A DNA stretch of 38,734 nt from a virus (Duplodnaviria; Caudoviricetes). The stretch's first letter is position 1; every line of letters starts with the position of its first letter. Below the pieces are notes generated by a model, which searched no databases, had not been told where the DNA came from, and was given only the letters and a program-made list of their open reading frames with translations. A program made the position numbers and the translations under genes. The stretch lies in the IMG/VR virus record IMGVR_UViG_3300022178_003667, positions 1-38,734 of that record; one strand, written 5' to 3'. Positions 1,615 to 38,685 of the stretch are shown here, in pieces.

Positions 1615-3404
1615 ATTCCTAAAAAATCTTTAACTTTGTTTAAACCTGCTCTATAAGCACCTTTATCAGCTCTATCTATCATTCTCTCTGTCATTTCACT
1701 TGGATTATTAGGTTCTCTTAAACCACTCTCATAAGCACTATCAGTATTTACTAACTTGTTGCCTTTTTTCTTATAAACTCTTAACTCCCAATAGTGGTGG
1801 CAGTTTTTTCCTCCCTTAAATTTTAGTAAACTATAGTTTTGCTTATTATGTCCTAATTGGTTATTTACACCCCTAAAAGACATCATATTAATATCTTCCT
1901 TTCTGAACACAACATTCTTTCCTGTTAAGTTTTCCATTCTCTTACAGAAGTTTCTGCTATCAGGTGATTTCCTTTCTGGCATATAAGCATATCTAATCTT
2001 ATAAATATCATCATCTTCTTTAGATTTTTTGTTAGGACTTGCTTTTATACCTAATCTCTCTAACCAAGACTTGCTACTTAAAGCTAATTCAGATGGATTT
2101 AAGCCATCTCTAGCCTCATTATATACTTCACTATGGACAACCTCCCAATCGTCGCTTAAAACCTCTCCTAAGCCTTCTAATTGATTTAACATATCGTCAC
2201 CATCATCATCAGAAAAATCATCCATCTCTACAGCTGATAGTTTCTCACCTGTTTCTTCTTCTTTTCTAATCTTAGTAGATATATTGTCTAATTCTGTAAA
2301 CTCTATAGGTTGTAATGTTACAAAGTAAATATCTTGATAAATATTATTAAATTCTAATATCTCTTCTAGGGCATATTTAATCTCATCTTGGAAAGGTCTT
2401 ATAATAACATTATCCATTAATACGGATGCTGTTCTTAATTCCTCTGCATTGTTACCAAAACCTGTATTATCTTTAATACCTAATAGAATTGGTGATACAA
2501 TACCATGACCTAGCATTATCTTTTCTCTTGCTTCGTCCGATAAGAATTGATATTGAGCATGAGCATCAGGTAAATGTATAGCCTCTATATCTGCTTTAGT
2601 TTCTGCACTATCATTAAACGCTATAATTGTTCTACCTGCGTTTGAGCTTCCGCTAAACTTTGTGTTTATCTTATTCTCTATAGCTATCTGTGTCTCTGCA
2701 TTAGGAACACCATTATTGAAATTTAAGAATAAGGATGGTGCTAAACCATTATGTATATTTGATATGTGATAATTAGATACTTCACATTCTAAATCTGCAT
2801 ACTGTAAACAAGCTTGATAGTCTGGTGTAGAGTAGTAATAAAATCCGCTTCTATATGGTTTTATTATGTATAGTTCCTCTAATTGTTTTTTGCTACCGTT
2901 TTTAAAAGTAGGTATGGGTTTAGGCTTATCATTTGGTTTAATATCTTTCCATTTAGGATGATAATAGTATGCTTTAATTACACCTTTGTCTGTAGCTTTA
3001 GCAGCTCTTAATGTTTCCATTGGAAAGTGGCAAACCTTTAATATCTTTGTCTTAGATTCATTATAGGTAAGTTTTAAAGCTCCTTGACCTAATTTCTTCC
3101 TATCTACAACAACTCTTTTAATATCTCTAGGTCTTAATAGTTTCTTCATTCTAACATAATCCTCTGGAAATAAATCAGAATTAGTAGATTCTATCCCTCT
3201 ACCAAATATCATATCAGATATACCATTATTACACCTAGAATTTGTAGGACTAGATAAATCTAAATCTATAAGCCTACCAAAGTAATTATTATCATCTCCC
3301 CAAGAAATCCAATCATTTCCATATTCTTCTTTTACCTCTGGTGCTTCATAAGAAGATAGATTAATAACCCTTACATTATTGTAATTCTTTTCTTTATTAC
3401 TCAT
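1611..3404 (-). CDS. Portal protein with C-terminal extension
   Basis: 597 aa with portal-like motifs (WGDDNNY, GSSNAG, GFGNNAEEL, IRPFQ), then an acidic linker and a SRNFC...KGGKNCHHYW domain. Confidence 0.8.
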   Translation of the reverse strand: MSNKEKNYNNVRVINLSSYEAPEVKEEYGNDWISWGDDNNYFGRLIDLDLSSPTNSRCNNGISDMIFGRGIESTNSDLFPEDYVRMKKLLRPRDIKRVVVDRKKLGQGALKLTYNESKTKILKVCHFPMETLRAAKATDKGVIKAYYYHPKWKDIKPNDKPKPIPTFKNGSKKQLEELYIIKPYRSGFYYYSTPDYQACLQYADLECEVSNYHISNIHNGLAPSLFLNFNNGVPNAETQIAIENKINTKFSGSSNAGRTIIAFNDSAETKADIEAIHLPDAHAQYQFLSDEAREKIMLGHGIVSPILLGIKDNTGFGNNAEELRTASVLMDNVIIRPFQDEIKYALEEILEFNNIYQDIYFVTLQPIEFTELDNISTKIRKEEETGEKLSAVEMDDFSDDDGDDMLNQLEGLGEVLSDDWEVVHSEVYNEARDGLNPSELALSSKSWLERLGIKASPNKKSKEDDDIYKIRYAYMPERKSPDSRNFCKRMENLTGKNVVFRKEDINMMSFRGVNNQLGHNKQNYSLLKFKGGKNCHHYWELRVYKKKGNKLVNTDSAYESGLREPNNPSEMTERMIDRADKGAYRAGLNKVKDFLGI

Positions 3405-4575: not shown

Positions 4576-5782
4576 CAATATAAATATTAATAAAAAATAT
4601 ATTCCTTTATTCAAGAACGATAACAGATACTTCTTAATTACTGGAGGTAGGGGAAGTGGAAAGAGTTTTGGAGCTACGGTATTCTTACTAAACCTAACAT
4701 ACGAGAGGGGTCATAAGATATTATTCTCTCGTTATACTATGATTTCTGCTCACACATCTATTATACCTGAATTTATTGAGAAGATTAACTTAATGGGTGT
4801 TCATGCAGATTTTAGAATAACTAAGGATGAGATAATGAATCTAAAGACAGGTTCTTCTATTATATTTAAAGGTATCAGAACATCATCTGGTAATCAAACA
4901 GCAGCCTTAAAGTCTATTAACGGTATTACAACCTTTGTATTAGATGAAGCGGAGGAATTAGTAGATGAAAGTGTGTTTGATAAAATTGACCTATCTGTAA
5001 GGGTTCAAAGTAAGCAGAATAGAGTTATATTAATAATGAATCCGTCAACAAAAGAACATTGGATATATAAACGTTGGTTTCAGAACGAAAACGTCTTAGA
5101 AGGCTCTAATTTAACTAAAGGAAGTACAACTTACATACATACAACTTATAAAGATAATAAAGATAACTTAGATAACTCTTTCTTGCAGAATATTTACGAT
5201 ATGAAACGCAAGAGACCAGACAAGTACGAACATCAGATACTTGGTGGTTGGTTAAATAAAGCTGAGGGTACTATTATAAGAAAATGGAGAGTTGGAGATT
5301 TTATACCAACAGAACTCACTTGTTATGGGCAGGATTTTGGATTCTCAGAGGATTTAACCACACTTGTAAAGATTTCTGTAGATAAAACTGCTAGAAAAAT
5401 ATGGGTAAAAGAGATTTATGGTAGCAAAGGATTAAGTACCTCTCAGATATATTCAAAGAGTAAGCTTGAATGTGGATTAGATTTAATTATTTGTGATAAC
5501 TCAGAACCTAGACTTATTAATGAGTTAAAGGTTTTAGGTCTTAATATAAAACCTACTATAAAGAAAAAAGGAAGTATTTTATCTGGTATTGCCTTAATGC
5601 AAGATTATGAAATTATAGTAGATAGAAATTCTCATGGAATTATAAGAGAAATTAATAATTACGCTTGGAAAGATAAAGGCGAAGTGCCTGTAGATAAATT
5701 TAATCACTACATTGATGCTATCAGATACGGAATGATGTATTTAGTACAAGGGATTAACTCTGGCGTATATGTGATAAGATAA
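4568..5782 (+). CDS. terL: Terminase large subunit (PBSX/SPP1-like)
   Basis: Walker A GGRGSGKS, Walker B FVLDEAEE, MNP motif, nuclease motifs GQDFGF and NHYIDAIRY. Confidence 0.92.
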   Translation: MNSNININKKYIPLFKNDNRYFLITGGRGSGKSFGATVFLLNLTYERGHKILFSRYTMISAHTSIIPEFIEKINLMGVHADFRITKDEIMNLKTGSSIIFKGIRTSSGNQTAALKSINGITTFVLDEAEELVDESVFDKIDLSVRVQSKQNRVILIMNPSTKEHWIYKRWFQNENVLEGSNLTKGSTTYIHTTYKDNKDNLDNSFLQNIYDMKRKRPDKYEHQILGGWLNKAEGTIIRKWRVGDFIPTELTCYGQDFGFSEDLTTLVKISVDKTARKIWVKEIYGSKGLSTSQIYSKSKLECGLDLIICDNSEPRLINELKVLGLNIKPTIKKKGSILSGIALMQDYEIIVDRNSHGIIREINNYAWKDKGEVPVDKFNHYIDAIRYGMMYLVQGINSGVYVIR

Positions 5783-14076: not shown

Positions 14077-14652
14077 TTATTTATTTACTGTTAATTTTAA
14101 TGTTGTTTCTATTTGTGGTGATACCGTAAACTTATTCTTTAGGCTTTTTATAACCTTATCGAAATCAGTACCCTTTTCTAAGTAAGATACTGCTGTCTTA
14201 AACTCCTTACTACCTAACTTTAGTATAGGTAATGTTATAGACTTCTTGCTAGAATCGTTCATAGCATCAGAATCTTTAGTGTCGTCTATAAGCAGAAGGT
14301 TTCCTAAAGCATACTTCTTAGCGTACGAAGAAGCAGAGCCAGTTCTTTGAGGGTTTTGCATACCTTTAGCATCAAAGTCTATAATAGCTTGTGCTTTAGA
14401 GGATATAGAGCTTTCCCTATCCACTTCTTCTAAATCTATAATTTTAGCCTCTGAGTCAACAAATATTCTACTTGCTAACTCTTTTAATTCGTCAGTAATC
14501 TTAAATAGTACCGAGTACTTCTCTTCAAAAGGCTTCAAGGCTTCCAATATATCCTCTGCGCTTCTGTACTTGTAATTACCAAAACTATTCTTTTGGTCTT
14601 TACTTACTTTTAATTCTAACTGAATCTTTTGTAATTTCTCTAAAATTGTCAT
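14077..14652 (-). CDS. ERF-family ssDNA-annealing recombinase
   Basis: NSFGNYKYRSAEDILEALKP and TGSASSYAKKYAL...DDTKDSD. Confidence 0.88.
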   Translation of the reverse strand: MTILEKLQKIQLELKVSKDQKNSFGNYKYRSAEDILEALKPFEEKYSVLFKITDELKELASRIFVDSEAKIIDLEEVDRESSISSKAQAIIDFDAKGMQNPQRTGSASSYAKKYALGNLLLIDDTKDSDAMNDSSKKSITLPILKLGSKEFKTAVSYLEKGTDFDKVIKSLKNKFTVSPQIETTLKLTVNK

Positions 14653-16135: not shown

Positions 16136-16261
16136 AACTAACAACGTGTATAAAAAATAGCTGTTAAGTGCTTTGGTTAATGTTATTTTATTTTACTCTT
16201 TTACTAATTCAATTTTTAAGTGTGTTAAAACGCTACATTTCATACACAAGTACCGTTATGC
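16136..16261. repeat. attC-like site B
   Basis: AACTAAC-AAC-GTGTATAAAAAATAGC...GCTACATTTCATACAC-AAGTACC-GTTATGC. Confidence 0.8.
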
Positions 16262-16529: not shown

Positions 16530-16583
16530 TTCTTGTTTTTTTTAATCGTTAAATAAACTACTCATATACGTAATACGTTGGCA
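16376..16583. repeat. attC-like site C (long loop)
   Basis: GCATAAC-ATC-GCATATAAGTA...TACTCATATAC-GTAATAC-GTTGGCA. Confidence 0.75.
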
Positions 16584-16628
16584 ACAATAAAATAAAAAAA
16601 AGGGCGCTCACTGTTGCAGTTGTACGTG

Positions 16629-17378
16629 TTAAAAAAGGCTTTGTTGGTTATTTTTGTAATTTGTCACTAATATTTCAGTTCTTTTGTTTTTAAGGTTTTG
16701 TCTTTCACCTATATAAACGATATTCAATCCTCTTTTTTGTGCTTGTTCAATAATAAATGGGTGGTCAAACTCACTAACTGCAAATTTATGTTTAGTGCTT
16801 TCAAGGCAATTAAAAAGACTTTCACTTTGTTCTTCAGTAAAACTACTAGAGTAATTATCAGCAGTTCCTAAATATGGTGGGTCACAGTAAATAAAACAAT
16901 TACCTCTAAACTCAATACCTTTCAAAAACTTTTCAAAGTCCATATTTGCAAACTGAACATCTTTTATAAATTCAAAAGTTTTATCTAAATATTTATAGAC
17001 ATTTAACTTATCATTTCTTGCTCCTAACCTCATTGTACTTCCTCTACCATTTAAAACAAAATTAGATAATGCTAAAAACCTTAACGCTTTTTTTACAGGA
17101 GTATCTTCTTCATTTTTTAACCAATATTTTATTAAGTCAGAATGTAAAGGCATTATTTCAAATTGTCTTTCTAATTCGTCTTTTTGGTTACTTACAACTT
17201 GAAACAAATTAAACACATCAGAGTCTAAATCATTAACAATATTATAATTAACTTTTGGTTTATTAAAGAACATACCTCCTGCACCAAAAAACGGCTCAAC
17301 ATACATATTATGTGCAGGAAAATAACTTTGTATATGTTCAGCTAACTTCTTTTTATTTCCTAATCTTCTTAAAATCAT
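16629..17378 (-). CDS. Dam-like (D12 class) N6-adenine DNA methyltransferase, cassette cargo
   Basis: GNKKKL, EPFFGAGG, VNDLD, YCDPPY. Confidence 0.9.
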   Translation of the reverse strand: MILRRLGNKKKLAEHIQSYFPAHNMYVEPFFGAGGMFFNKPKVNYNIVNDLDSDVFNLFQVVSNQKDELERQFEIMPLHSDLIKYWLKNEEDTPVKKALRFLALSNFVLNGRGSTMRLGARNDKLNVYKYLDKTFEFIKDVQFANMDFEKFLKGIEFRGNCFIYCDPPYLGTADNYSSSFTEEQSESLFNCLESTKHKFAVSEFDHPFIIEQAQKRGLNIVYIGERQNLKNKRTEILVTNYKNNQQSLF

Positions 17379-17430
17379 TACGTGTTATTTGGTTTTTATC
17401 AAAACCACGCCCTTTTTTTTATTTTACAGT

Positions 17431-17563
17431 AGCCAACACTGTATAAAGTTAATAGCTACTTTTAGCGTGTTTAAGATGTTATTTAATTAATTCAATACTC
17501 TTTGTTTATTTATTAAAGTTAGTGTTTTAAATACGCTACTAACCTTATACGATTCCGTTAGAG
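17431..17563. repeat. attC-like site D
   Basis: AGCCAAC-ACT-GTATAAAGTTAATAGC...GCTACTAACCTTATAC-GATTCC-GTTAGAG. Confidence 0.8.
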
Positions 17564-33145: not shown

Positions 33146-33294
33146 TTATAAAGGTTTTTTGCTTTGGTTAAAGTCATATTAATAGTAGTTAGAGTTAATA
33201 TGGTGCTAGATGCCTATCCATTACGTTCAGCGACCATCTATAATTTACTAAGGTAATTGCTGAAACATTATCCCTTTCAATCGCACCATACTAA

Positions 33295-33427
33295 CAATAA
33301 CAATGTATATAAAAAATAGGGGGTGGCGTAGTCAAACCTAATTGTTTCTTTACTAAATTACCACTGGCGAAACGTCTATTATGTACCTATTTTAAACCCC
33401 TAAATTTCATATACTTTAAAGTTATAT
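33295..33427. repeat. attC-like site E
   Basis: CAATAAC-AAT-GTATATAAAAAATAGGGG...CCCCTAAATTTCATATAC-TTTAAA-GTTATAT. Confidence 0.8.
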
Positions 33428-34200: not shown

Positions 34201-34289
34201 TTTGCTATCGCAATTTGCCCTCGCTCAAAAATAAAAGAAAAAGGGTCGGTTAATAATTCAAACTTTTGTGCTTTAAAGTCGCACCAGAC

Positions 34290-34421
34290 ATATAACAACG
34301 TATATAAAAAAGGCGGTGTAATTTATTGAGTATCGGAGCTATCTGCACGTCTGCAAGGTCATTGCCACAATAAACGTCACTTACTTTTAATCCGCCCATT
34401 TCATATACAAGTACGTTGGTA
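34290..34421. repeat. attC-like site F
   Basis: ATATAAC-AAC-GTATATAAAAAAGGCGG...CCGCCCATTTCATATAC-AAGTAC-GTTGGTA. Confidence 0.8.
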
Positions 34422-34443
34422 ACAATTGCTAAAAAAAGCCACC

Positions 34444-34944
34444 TCACTCGGTCGGCTCACTCTTAATGAAACAAATCCAATGAGTTTGCATAGCTTTTCC
34501 GCTTTTATGTCCGTAAAGCGGTTTTTCTTCTGTTAAAGCTAAGATTTCTTTTATTGGTATTCTACATTCATTCCATTTAAAAATTAGTGTTCCATTTGGT
34601 TTTAATACTCTAAAACATTCTATAAATCCTTTTCTTAACATTTCTTTCCAATCACCGGTTAAATGTCCATATTGTTTACATATTGCACCAGTCATAGTTT
34701 TTTGTGGTATATGTGGTGGGTCAAAAACAATATGGTAAAATGAATTATCTTCTTGTTTTATATTTGTAAAATCCCCTATTTCATCAGGTTCAACTATTAT
34801 ATTTCTATCATAGCCATCTTTTCTTTTTATTATGTGTTTCTCTTGTCTTTTATCTAAAAACAATGCTCTTTCATCTTGTTTATTAAACCACATACTTTTT
34901 GGCCCACAGCAAACATCTAATACTTTTTTCCTACTCATAATCAT
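34444..34944 (-). CDS. SAM-dependent (DNA amino-)methyltransferase, cassette cargo
   Basis: VLDVCCG..SMWF, VFDPPH, ECFRVLKPNG.LIFKW; start placed inside the cassette (34944 or 34938). Confidence 0.82.
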   Translation of the reverse strand: MIMSRKKVLDVCCGPKSMWFNKQDERALFLDKRQEKHIIKRKDGYDRNIIVEPDEIGDFTNIKQEDNSFYHIVFDPPHIPQKTMTGAICKQYGHLTGDWKEMLRKGFIECFRVLKPNGTLIFKWNECRIPIKEILALTEEKPLYGHKSGKAMQTHWICFIKSEPTE

Positions 34945-34986
34945 TTTATTTTTTTGCAAAAATAAGTGGCTTTTTTTATCAACAGT

Positions 34987-35117
34987 AACCAACAACGTAT
35001 ATAATTTATTGCTGCTAATCACTGTTTTACCAAGTTATTTTTATTATTTATACTATTCTATTATTTAATTATTTCAGTTCTTTAAATCGCAACAAACCAT
35101 ATACAAATACGTTAGCA
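34987..35117. repeat. attC-like site G
   Basis: AACCAAC-AAC-GTATATAATTTATTGC...GCAACAAACCATATAC-AAATAC-GTTAGCA. Confidence 0.8.
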
Positions 35118-35121
35118 TTAA

Positions 35122-35382
35122 TTAAGATTCTAGCCAATCTGCATAAGATTTGAAGTTATCAGCACTTTCAACGTGCTTAATTATAGATTCCAAATCATTA
35201 GGTATATATAACCAACTTGCAGATAGTTCCCAACTATAATTTTGCCATATATTACCGCACTCATCTAGTGTGCAAAGTATATCTCTGTGCAATACCAATG
35301 CTTTTTGTATTCTAATCAAATCTTCTTTAGGTTCTTGCTTATGGTATTCGTCTGTTACTATTTGGTCTCGTAAGTGTATCAT
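35122..35382 (-). CDS. Cassette cargo, hypothetical protein
   Basis: Fills the G-H cassette. Confidence 0.7.
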   Translation of the reverse strand: MIHLRDQIVTDEYHKQEPKEDLIRIQKALVLHRDILCTLDECGNIWQNYSWELSASWLYIPNDLESIIKHVESADNFKSYADWLES

Positions 35383-35392
35383 AATTAACTAA

Positions 35393-35489
35393 TGCTAACA
35401 ATGGCTATAAATAAAAGCCTTTGCTAAGGTTATTTCTTTGAATCAATCATTTGTTATACGGCTTCAATTCATAGCCGTAGCCGTTGGTA
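35393..35489. repeat. attC-like site H
   Basis: TGCTAAC-AAT-GGCTATAAATAAAAGCC...GGCTTCAATTCATAGCC-GTAGCC-GTTGGTA. Confidence 0.8.
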
Positions 35490-35523
35490 ACAATTGCTAA
35501 AAAAGCCACCTCACTCTTGTAGC

Positions 35524-36429
35524 TTACTCATATTCGTGAAAATTGAATATATTAGTTTGATAATTTATTTCTTGATGCGTTTCACTCACTTCGTCTAAAT
35601 CTTTTACACCACAAGCTAAACCATTGCAATCTGTTAATGGTTGTGGTGGTCTGCCTTTCATCATTGAAATATCTTTTATGTTTGGGTAGTCTGGGTGCGG
35701 TTTTAGAAATACTAAACCCCCTCCTTTGCTTTGGTCTTTTAACATTGTTACGGGTTCGCCTTTTAAGTCTGTTAGTTCGTGTTCAATCTTAGACATTGCG
35801 TTAAATTTAGAGAGCCATATTCCACCCATGTCCCTAAATTTTTGCCAGTACCCTATTCCTCCTTGCACGCAACCTCCAGTTGTAGGGGTTGAACCTAAAC
35901 AATTGTTATTTAAAAATCCTAGTACATAAGCCATTGGTAATTTTAAACCTTCATCTTGTATTAACTGAACACAATCTTTTTTTGTATATCCGTACATCAA
36001 TAATGGAAATATAGGTTTTGCAGTTTTACGATAATTGTTAACCATAGATTTAACTCGTCTAATTTCATCAACATCAAATCCAAATGCTTGTGCTTGGTAA
36101 CTATTTTCTTTTTCCCATTCTTTTCTTAATTGTCTTTTTAATTCAGAAGAACAAACTGCACCACCAGCAACATTTAAAGATTTGTATTTATACCAAACAT
36201 CTTGTATTTTTTCATACTTTTTACCTTTACCTATTCTTGTAATAGTTTCAATTTCCTTACCATACCATTTTTCACAGTCTTTTTTAAATCTGTAAGTGTC
36301 TTCATCTTCATTAAATGTATCAATGAAAATTAATCTTACGTTTTCAACTCCATAAATGTCTATGCAAAGTTTACAAGTTACTGCACTTGTAACACCACCA
36401 GACCACCAACCTATTATTTTATTTTTCAT
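35524..36429 (-). CDS. PAPS-reductase-like (PP-loop adenine nucleotide alpha-hydrolase) protein, cassette cargo
   Basis: WWSGGVTSA PP-loop, EDEDTYRF, C...LK, GF.NNNC....GCV.GG.GYW. Confidence 0.75.
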   Translation of the reverse strand: MKNKIIGWWSGGVTSAVTCKLCIDIYGVENVRLIFIDTFNEDEDTYRFKKDCEKWYGKEIETITRIGKGKKYEKIQDVWYKYKSLNVAGGAVCSSELKRQLRKEWEKENSYQAQAFGFDVDEIRRVKSMVNNYRKTAKPIFPLLMYGYTKKDCVQLIQDEGLKLPMAYVLGFLNNNCLGSTPTTGGCVQGGIGYWQKFRDMGGIWLSKFNAMSKIEHELTDLKGEPVTMLKDQSKGGGLVFLKPHPDYPNIKDISMMKGRPPQPLTDCNGLACGVKDLDEVSETHQEINYQTNIFNFHEYE

Positions 36430-36653
36430 AATTCTATAATTTCTTTTGTTTCTTCTTTAAAATAATCCCTTGCCATTTCTAAATTAGAGTAACTTAAATC
36501 ACAAGGTAATAATTCTGTAAAATATCCATTTAACCAAAGTTCATCGCTTTTATATCTTTTCCAATACCCCCCAAATAAATTAAAAAACCATTTGTTTTTA
36601 TAATATTCTGGATAATACCTATTACCTTCTTTTACTATTCTTTTATCACTCAT
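36426..36653 (-). CDS. Cassette cargo, hypothetical protein
   Basis: ATGA-coupled to the PP-loop gene. Confidence 0.65.
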   Translation of the reverse strand: MSDKRIVKEGNRYYPEYYKNKWFFNLFGGYWKRYKSDELWLNGYFTELLPCDLSYSNLEMARDYFKEETKEIIEL

Positions 36654-36701
36654 ATTCTTTATTTTAATTTTTCAAATTAATGTGGCTTTTTTAGCAACTG
36701 T

Positions 36702-36832
36702 AACCAACAATGTGTATAATTTAGTGCTACTAATCGTCTGTTTAACCACTTATTTTTATCATTTACACTATTCTACTATTTATTAATTTTCTTGCTTTAA
36801 ATCGCACCAAACCATACACAAATACGTTGGTA
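36702..36832. repeat. attC-like site I (paralogue of G)
   Basis: AACCAAC-AAT-GTGTATAATTTAGTGC...GCACCAAACCATACAC-AAATAC-GTTGGTA. Confidence 0.8.
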
Positions 36833-36842
36833 GTAATGTGCC

Positions 36843-37136
36843 TTACTTATTAAATAGTTCAGGCTTATAAACAGATTTCTTGCAATAATCCTCTAACTTT
36901 ATGTATTGGTTATCAGGGCAACACGCAAGATATTTCTTATCTATTACTTTAGTGCTTAAACTTCCACAGCCAGTGCATACTTTCGGCAAACTACAACCAA
37001 CATCGGTTATAATTAATTGTTCAGTCACGTAATCATAAGCAACATCATTTATTTCTTGTCGCTTATCTACTGGCACTTCTGCTAAATCAAAGAGTTGTGC
37101 CACTATTCCTATTGCTTGTTTTTCTAAATTTTTCAT
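36843..37136 (-). CDS. Hypothetical protein starting in the loop of site J (QLIITDV|GCS), with Cys-rich C-terminus
   Basis: ORF track plus site coordinates; CTGC...CC. Confidence 0.7.
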   Translation of the reverse strand: MKNLEKQAIGIVAQLFDLAEVPVDKRQEINDVAYDYVTEQLIITDVGCSLPKVCTGCGSLSTKVIDKKYLACCPDNQYIKLEDYCKKSVYKPELFNK

Positions 37137-37193
37137 TCTATTTAATTTTTTGTTTTAATAAATCACAACTAATCATAACCACATCCGTTATAA
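36995..37193. repeat. attC-like site J (long loop)
   Basis: AACCAAC-ATC-GGTTATAATTAATTGT...ACAACTAATCATAACC-ACATCC-GTTATAA. Confidence 0.8.
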
Positions 37194-38058: not shown

Positions 38059-38118
38059 TTGTATTTATTTAATTTGTTTTTATTTATCCGCAACTAACTT
38101 TAACCATATAAGTTGTGT
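37949..38118. repeat. attC-like site L (left arm truncated)
   Basis: Intact right half GCAACTAACTTTAACC-ATATAA-GTTGTGT; only GTTAATTGC of the left arm remains. Confidence 0.6.
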
Positions 38119-38186
38119 GTAATGCGGTTGGATAACCGTTCTGTAAAAGCTACATCATTACGTAACCGCACTACAAGCCTTTCGGC

Positions 38187-38314
38187 ACACAACTATGGTT
38201 AAATGTAATACCTAACCAATAGTAATGTCAAAACTAATTATATCATTCATAATCGCTTATTTATAAAATTATAGTAGTTTTTCTCGGCACTACACTTAAC
38301 CGTTTAAGTTGTAA
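38187..38314. repeat. attC-like site M
   Basis: ACACAAC-TAT-GGTTAAATGTAATACC...GGCACTACACTTAACC-GTTTAA-GTTGTAA. Confidence 0.8.
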
Positions 38315-38472: not shown

Positions 38473-38630
38473 CGTAAACAATTTACAACATCGGTTAAAG
38501 TTAATTGCTTTTTTAGGTATTCTATATTATTAAAATTTAACCTAATGTAATCTCCTGTTTGTAATTTAATGTTTAAATAACCATCTTTTATCCAATGGTC
38601 TTTAACGTTTGGTAATTTATTTATGTCCAT
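38469..38630 (-). CDS. Loop-encoded ORF of site N (53 aa), ATGA-coupled to the cargo
   Basis: MDINKLPNVK...YLKKQLTLTDVVNCLR; read manually. Confidence 0.55.
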   Translation of the reverse strand: MDINKLPNVKDHWIKDGYLNIKLQTGDYIRLNFNNIEYLKKQLTLTDVVNCLR

Positions 38631-38685
38631 ATCTATTTACTTTTAGTTTAATTCACGCAACTAACCTTAACCACATACGTTAGTA
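38483..38685. repeat. attC-like site N (long loop)
   Basis: TTACAAC-ATC-GGTTAAAGTTAATTGC...GCAACTAACCTTAACC-ACATAC-GTTAGTA. Confidence 0.8.

Follow-up and report, generated by a model that had tools for sequence, protein, structure and literature searches.

The phage locus described here raises the question of how the same pair of ends comes to enclose unrelated genes and, with it, that of how cassettes are made in the first place; cassette formation is called an outstanding question in PMC8618304 and is likewise treated as open in PMC8352920, in the portions of both papers available to us. The DNA analysed, hereafter the window, comprises 38,734 nucleotides and is a tailed-phage record with an estimated completeness of 100%, in which a protein scan detected terminase, portal, Erf and DnaA-like genes, and whose relatives, as obtained by sequence search, are Polaribacter and Tenacibaculum phages. 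From 33.2 kb to its end the window harbors 9 hairpin sites, all built alike on the plus strand as AAC-3 nt-stem ... stem-6 nt-GTT, against 0-1 in 20 shuffles, and every ORF between the sites of this array lies on the minus strand. The array begins at a fixed left flank (33180-33190, plus strand) that ends in G|TT and is common to L002, and may represent an attI-like point. Neither an IntI integrase nor a tyrosine recombinase is present in the window (PF00589, 0/1), and an Rfam search of the window yielded 3 weak chance matches and no family.

Directly after the fixed flank there is a first cassette with paired ends and no ORF (33189-33421); similar hairpin cassettes devoid of an ORF are found in Danklef (L030, ~4806-4862) and Freya. 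A site-like hairpin of opposite polarity is located within the array at 38102-38200, and two sites of ~190 nt (36999-37189 and 38487-38681) contain in their loop the start of the left-hand gene. Two candidate mini-sites (37172-37189 and 38664-38681) were rejected, being the right ends of these 190-nt sites. Elsewhere in the window, at 16577-17437, a third long-arm cassette encodes a D12-class adenine methyltransferase; its paired GC stem is a different one, and the cassette is of the type seen in a P12002S shell and shows same-polarity sites at ~16141-16257 and 17435-17559.

The two cassettes that motivate this work are F-G (34416-35111) and H-I (35484-36826). Site F (34294-34417, plus strand), an attC-like hairpin, belongs to the neighbouring cassette to its left, and a Danklef loop 95% identical to its own is found behind another cargo. 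The left shell of F-G (34415-34461, plus) combines a 28-nt arm (34415-34442) with an inner motif from which the minus-strand cargo takes its final codons and its stop (SEPTE*); this cargo is a phrog_954 DNA methyltransferase of 164 aa (34444-34938; profile match, E 9e-63). The right shell (34929-34993, plus) holds the start codons, an A/T-rich leader and a 28-nt arm (34966-34993) complementary to the left one, and is followed by the site G hairpin (34991-35113, plus), which travels with F-G and whose crossover G|TT lies at 35111/35112. The intervening cassette G-H (35111-35485, plus) is composed of an 86-aa ORF (35122-35382, minus) and site H (35397-35485), and its short arms match a second shell type, which elsewhere holds the methyltransferase. 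H-I repeats the F-G layout, with a left shell (35483-35535, plus) made of a 27-nt arm (35483-35509) and an inner motif with the cargo stop codon, a PAPS-reductase-like PP-loop protein of 301 aa (35524-36429, minus; profile match to phrog_424), a 75-aa ORF without family that begins at the ATG AGT of the shell (36426-36653, minus), a right shell (36648-36708, plus) with its 27-nt arm (36682-36708), and site I (36706-36828, plus), a paralogue of G.

The first-pass annotation had described near-identical left ends at 34415 and 35483, and these are indeed the only two copies of the 35-nt left end in the window at ≤3 edits, while none of 300 random 35-mers drawn from positions 1-32800 has a second copy. 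Its further claim that both units end in like sequence followed by paralogous sites G and I agrees with an identity of 76% over 205 nt for the two sites with their flanks and of 85% for their loops, and the left-hand sites F and H are as dissimilar as it stated (47% loop identity). The cargos are unrelated, since they fall into different phrog families and the comparison of the F-G and H-I cargos gives no blastn or blastp match. Concerning the shell itself, the ends quoted were correct, but the shared segment is longer, running as far as the ATG AGT start codon at its right side and, at its left side, over ~45 nt that include the stop codon region; moreover, the right ends (34966-34993 and 36682-36708) are inverted repeats of the left ones (86% and 93%, respectively), which had gone unstated. 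A 65-aa minus-strand ORF (34250-34447) has its GTG start in the left shell and reads through site F, and may be due to chance.

The search for the same shell around other cargos in viromes, proposed in the first-pass annotation, was carried out through pattern and BLAST searches and retrieved 11 complete copies enclosing 8 cargo groups, between which there is no blastp match at E≤0.01. Besides the two window cargos, these groups comprise two further methyltransferase classes (L002/L069 and L084), small unknown genes (L051, L056), a Danklef/Freya small-gene block with as many as three genes and some non-coding DNA, and a sense ORF (L078). In L078 the sense ORF, of 125 aa, faces an antisense ORF of 54 aa within the same shell. 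Contigs from the public runs X1, X3 and X8 likewise show both arms joined around other sequence. An empty copy of the F-G/H-I shell was found neither in the viral searches nor in the public-run contigs, whose joints hold ~500 nt of other cargo. A degenerate arm pattern gave 20 loci, the real ones being only the contig of L002 and the window's own copies; 9 of 18 loci in one further set were chance or unrelated hits, and in another set 6 of 7 were chance and L092 was real.

The shell is part of a wider family of 24 long-arm cassettes, which mostly carry DNA-modification genes and whose arm sequences differ yet stay complementary: the GC stem scores 4.7/5 for own arms against 3.1 for swapped ones and the outer part 5.1/6 against 2.5, a control that is partly circular because most of these cassettes were selected for arm pairing; the 4 P12002 and Danklef cases of methyltransferase type were taken by eye from annotated records and not through the pattern. 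Over 47 intervals, own cassette ends are complementary at 6.1/10 positions and swapped ones at 3.8. Of the 23 cargos whose ORF terminates close to the arm, 9 use the stop codon of the shell in frame, after a P-T/Q-E-like tail. Arms and loops are separable: in Freya the shell arms adjoin a loop that is not of G type, in Danklef different arms precede the F loop, and both arrangements break near AAC; arm-only searches recovered G-type loops in L002 and Danklef and not in Freya, and the co-segregation of loops in the metagenome set is biased because the pattern used there demanded a G-like loop start. Since arms and loops swap partners near AAC, the shell is modular rather than rigid; thus, the proposal of one shared shell stands as regards its reuse around many cargos and has to be amended as regards its unity, the loop being exchangeable. 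A target-site duplication at the cargo ends was considered in view of a 10-nt direct repeat in H-I and was discarded as a mechanism of general validity, as the mean over the 24 cassettes is 4.4 for own ends and 4.9 for swapped ones.

The converse relationship, one cargo in several shells or in none, is observed as well. The core of the F-G methyltransferase recurs at 90.4% DNA identity in L106 and L108, where the left shell is only 26-35% and the right shell 49% identical, arms and loops differ from those of F-G, and identity breaks within ~3 codons of the start and ~6 of the stop. Of 41 relatives of this methyltransferase, 14 are enclosed by other shells, 8 by a second type and 6 by a third, and cassette ends are lacking in the remaining 27; this count excludes 25 of 67 loci, being fragments or below 66% identity, and, owing to its threshold, does not include the copy in the window itself (L105, score 7). 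In a tree of 43 rows, from which near-duplicates were removed and whose outgroup contexts are unclassified, copies with and without a shell are intermingled, and a single clade of the shelled ones is rejected (p-AU 1.3e-5); the direction of exchange, i.e. capture or escape, is not fixed by this tree. A relative of the PP-loop gene at 82% (L173) is also free-standing, with no ends. In L147, a GC-rich phage, a distant methyltransferase relative lies beside an attC-like repeat, antisense as judged by eye.

In order to establish which site moves with which gene, the cultured Polaribacter phage isolates Freya 1, 2, 5, 6, 8, 9 and 10 are most informative, being alike except for an array that begins at one fixed G|TT. 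In 7/7 pairwise comparisons they differ only by whole units, each bounded by G|TT on both sides and carrying its loop at the right-hand end. A 902-bp cassette with the F-G/H-I shell is present in Freya_10 and missing from Freya_8, where the left loop is kept and the right one lost; the same 902-bp cassette is the first unit of Freya_5 and is absent from Freya_2, and the first unit of Freya_6 has no copy in Freya_10, Freya_5 or Danklef_5. These variants may be excisions that took place during culture. A copy of F-G, 99.9% identical (L080), follows a different left neighbour to which it is joined at G|TT. The check put forward initially, namely which flanking site co-segregates with a given cargo, is answered by these Freya indels and L080 in favor of the right-hand site. 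The unit is G|TT-arm-cargo-arm-AAC-hairpin on the plus strand and enters or leaves the array in one piece at G|TT; its ends provide the first codons, the leader, the last codons and the stop. Since the Freya indels settle this polarity, the cargo is antisense, as the first reading of the sequence had proposed. The comparison of Danklef 1 with Danklef 5 was set aside, since these differ outside the array according to annotation.

The strand bias of the hairpins points in the same direction. The imperfect pairs of 10 plus-polarity sites are, on the plus strand, 21 A-C and 0 G-T, therefore the minus strand pairs by G-T wobble, and folding energy is lower on the minus strand in 9 of the 10. Modelled excised circles reach -28.4 and -33.8 kcal/mol on the minus strand, compared to -11.6 and -17.8 kcal/mol in the array. 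Cargo is on the minus strand in 39/39 phage-type intervals with an ORF and on the plus strand in 4/4 intervals of a Psychroserpens array of the same site polarity; L052, with 2/2 sense, was counted as bacterial-like and is an unlabelled metagenome contig that received this label after inspection. A promoter scan gave fewer hits than chance (19 vs 33.5).

The Freya phages also encode a putative recombinase at this position. The fixed G|TT of the array lies just upstream of a divergent gene for a recombinase of 271 aa (L096, 511-1326), and this attI-type point beside the recombinase is common to 7/7 Freya isolates examined. The protein scores 96.5 bits against TIGR02249, whose cut-off is 265, over residues 8-173 only, and its best match is XerA-like; on these sequence criteria, the Freya locus is a complete integron-like locus with a Xer-like, non-IntI recombinase. 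Distant relatives of this recombinase have same-polarity sites upstream in 5/6 cases (two of these five array-heading loci are near-identical), the sixth having no upstream DNA. In Psychroserpens there are 5 matches to it (best, 32% identity), of which the 3 checked show no same-polarity array in their short flanks. The recombinase gene of Danklef_5 (L093, 41963-42482) is disrupted, with a match confined to residues 96-271, and lies directly against the array. Judging from its gene content, the window would need a recombinase supplied in trans.

The same ends around unrelated genes, together with exact gain and loss, suggest that new cassettes are likely to arise by grafting. We therefore favor, at a probability of about 60%, a reading in which these are mobile cassettes with reusable ends and antisense genes, belonging to an integron-like phage system, and in which new cassettes probably originate from phage genes grafted between such ends. 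The earlier proposal of cargo swapping inside an existing shell is supported as to the pattern of exchange, which runs both ways (one shell with many cargos, one cargo with many shells), and as to mechanism we infer the following. The minus strand of an excised single-stranded circle would fold into one long stem containing the hairpin and both arms, which could be cut by a Xer-like tyrosine recombinase coming from a co-infecting phage or the host. Recombination at short homologies close to the first and the last codon would exchange cargo at a single end per event, probably through the phage's own annealing protein; Erf/RecT-type proteins are encoded in these phages, with RecT in Freya and Danklef and, in the window, an Erf-family single-strand annealing protein identified by protein scan (14077-14652, minus strand) as a candidate helper. 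The antisense orientation may reflect transcription of the cargo together with the early genes of the phage, in the direction of the insertion point, and the ORF-less single-hairpin cassettes of the window, Danklef and Freya could be parents. Two chimeras fit one-end-at-a-time exchange by short homology, as far as their sequence goes: within its site L055 begins with G-type letters and continues with I-type ones, the change falling in a shared 9-nt stretch, and L066 holds the H-I cargo and right shell, is of free type over its last 70 nt, and shows no left arm in the 333 nt available, an arm that could lie beyond the contig end. No exchange junction with both parents known was found among the loci retrieved.

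The observation that junctions fall at first and last codons, that the shell stop is read in frame by 9 of 23 cargos with its P-T/Q-E-like tail, and that few shell types hold many cargos would also be produced by a dedicated builder, e.g. a reverse transcriptase or a template-jumping polymerase, adding stereotyped ends de novo to transcripts or genes, so that templates would be reused and no cargo swapped. We consider this unlikely, as no such enzyme occurs among the 45 window proteins scanned, the one-ended chimeras L055 and L066 fit stepwise recombination, the Danklef/Freya cargo contains non-coding DNA and up to three genes, and there is no target-site duplication signal. Rather improbable is that the shared ends are selected expression and binding signals, such as a recombinase arm, a leader and a terminator-like stem, homogenised among cassettes by gene conversion that would overwrite the ends alone, no cassette ever being born from a free gene. 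Loops and ends do swap between cassettes, a weak stem resembling a terminator forms at the 3' end (-12.9 and -9.9 kcal/mol) and bacterial cassettes likewise carry arms, of 12-13 nt; however, a consensus terminator scan finds nothing at the shells, and all free copies, i.e. 27 of the 41 methyltransferase relatives, interleaved with the shelled ones, and L173, would have to be escapes.

Two further explanations appear highly improbable. That the site travels with the right-hand cargo might be argued from the stop codons on GTT at 37188 and 37500, from the fact that HattCI called attC1 of P12002L, a related site, along the gene strand and from the loop swaps near AAC; as main mode it is contradicted by Freya_8, which lacks the shell cassette together with the right loop and retains the left one. 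The overlap of those stop codons with GTT cores, entered initially as a caveat, is real, but it does not speak for opposite polarity, because antisense genes end in the left arm. A simple local duplication, in turn, is at odds with cargos that have no common sequence and with the presence of the shell in many other phages. A non-autonomous transposon with 28-bp terminal inverted repeats, to which we give equally little credence, would account for variable cargo flanked by long inverted repeats; against it, the ends are GTT/AAC cores, the hairpin moves with the unit, arm sequences vary between families while staying paired, no target duplication is seen at G|TT, and the 11 complete shell copies include no insertion off cassette sites with target duplication.

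Several known systems share features with these phages. As in integrons, units are cut at G|TT and carry their own hairpin on the right, a fixed insertion point lies (in Freya) beside a divergent tyrosine recombinase, and one strand, the minus or bottom one, folds better. Unlike in integrons, phage cargo is antisense, the Freya recombinase resembles Xer and scores far under the cut-off for IntI, and arms of 25-28 nt extend the stem beyond the site. Canonical attC geometry includes extrahelical bases; the phage sites show an asymmetry of 3 nt on the left and 6 nt on the right with no clear extrahelical base. In sum, the phage system works like an integron and fails to be one on IntI and cargo orientation.

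Integrase-less attC clusters (CALINs) were reported by Qi et al. 2023 (PMC9892861) in virulent phages, including Polaribacter phage P12002L, which resembles the window in phage group, methyltransferase cargo and lack of an integrase. Its attC1 belongs with site H in one family; in that work it was read along the gene strand and showed no recombination with IntI1. Its attC2 corresponds to a fixed left flank, present at the head of two separate arrays (L234, ~3175-3240, and L222, ~5200-5265). Divergent sites are noted there, the words 'antisense' and 'opposite' have 0 occurrences in the main text as available, and the text examined does not describe shells or cargo exchange. Phage mosaicism, as in the Martinsohn-type lambda Red study (PMC2327257, in the part consulted), is similar in that modules are exchanged in short flanks with Red/Erf-type proteins; the flanks in the window differ in being the ends of a site-specifically mobile cassette, therefore every exchange gives a new mobile unit. 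Shared 5' segments of class 1 integron cassettes, such as the 101-bp qacE segment (PMC8876359, consulted in part), also show a cassette end reused before unrelated genes, at one end and in sense, whereas the phage shells comprise both ends, with start and stop codons and paired arms. Single cassettes in opposite orientation are mentioned in the accessible portion of a Xanthomonas preprint. Within the literature covered, most subscription papers being outside its scope, no account was found of antisense arrays, shells or the Freya indels.

Concerning the biology of these phages, the integrase of Freya is taken as a sign of temperate life in PMC8776804, in whose available text 'integron' and 'cassette' have 0 occurrences; this 'lysogeny' integrase can be reinterpreted as a likely cassette recombinase, for which it is a candidate. 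A bolder formulation, to which we incline only tentatively and give somewhat less than an even chance, is that flavobacterial phages act as cassette factories through an integron system of a second kind, run by a Xer-like recombinase instead of IntI, in which in-frame grafting of ordinary phage genes between reusable shells, the donors of leader, start, stop and a pair of arms lengthening the stem, provides an observable route of cassette genesis. Since a gene is available in public sequence both free and in three different shells, along with one-ended intermediates and a series of cultured phages whose indels are exact and lie beside a candidate recombinase, cassette genesis is directly testable. 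Through such cassettes, phages may rotate DNA-modification genes against host restriction.
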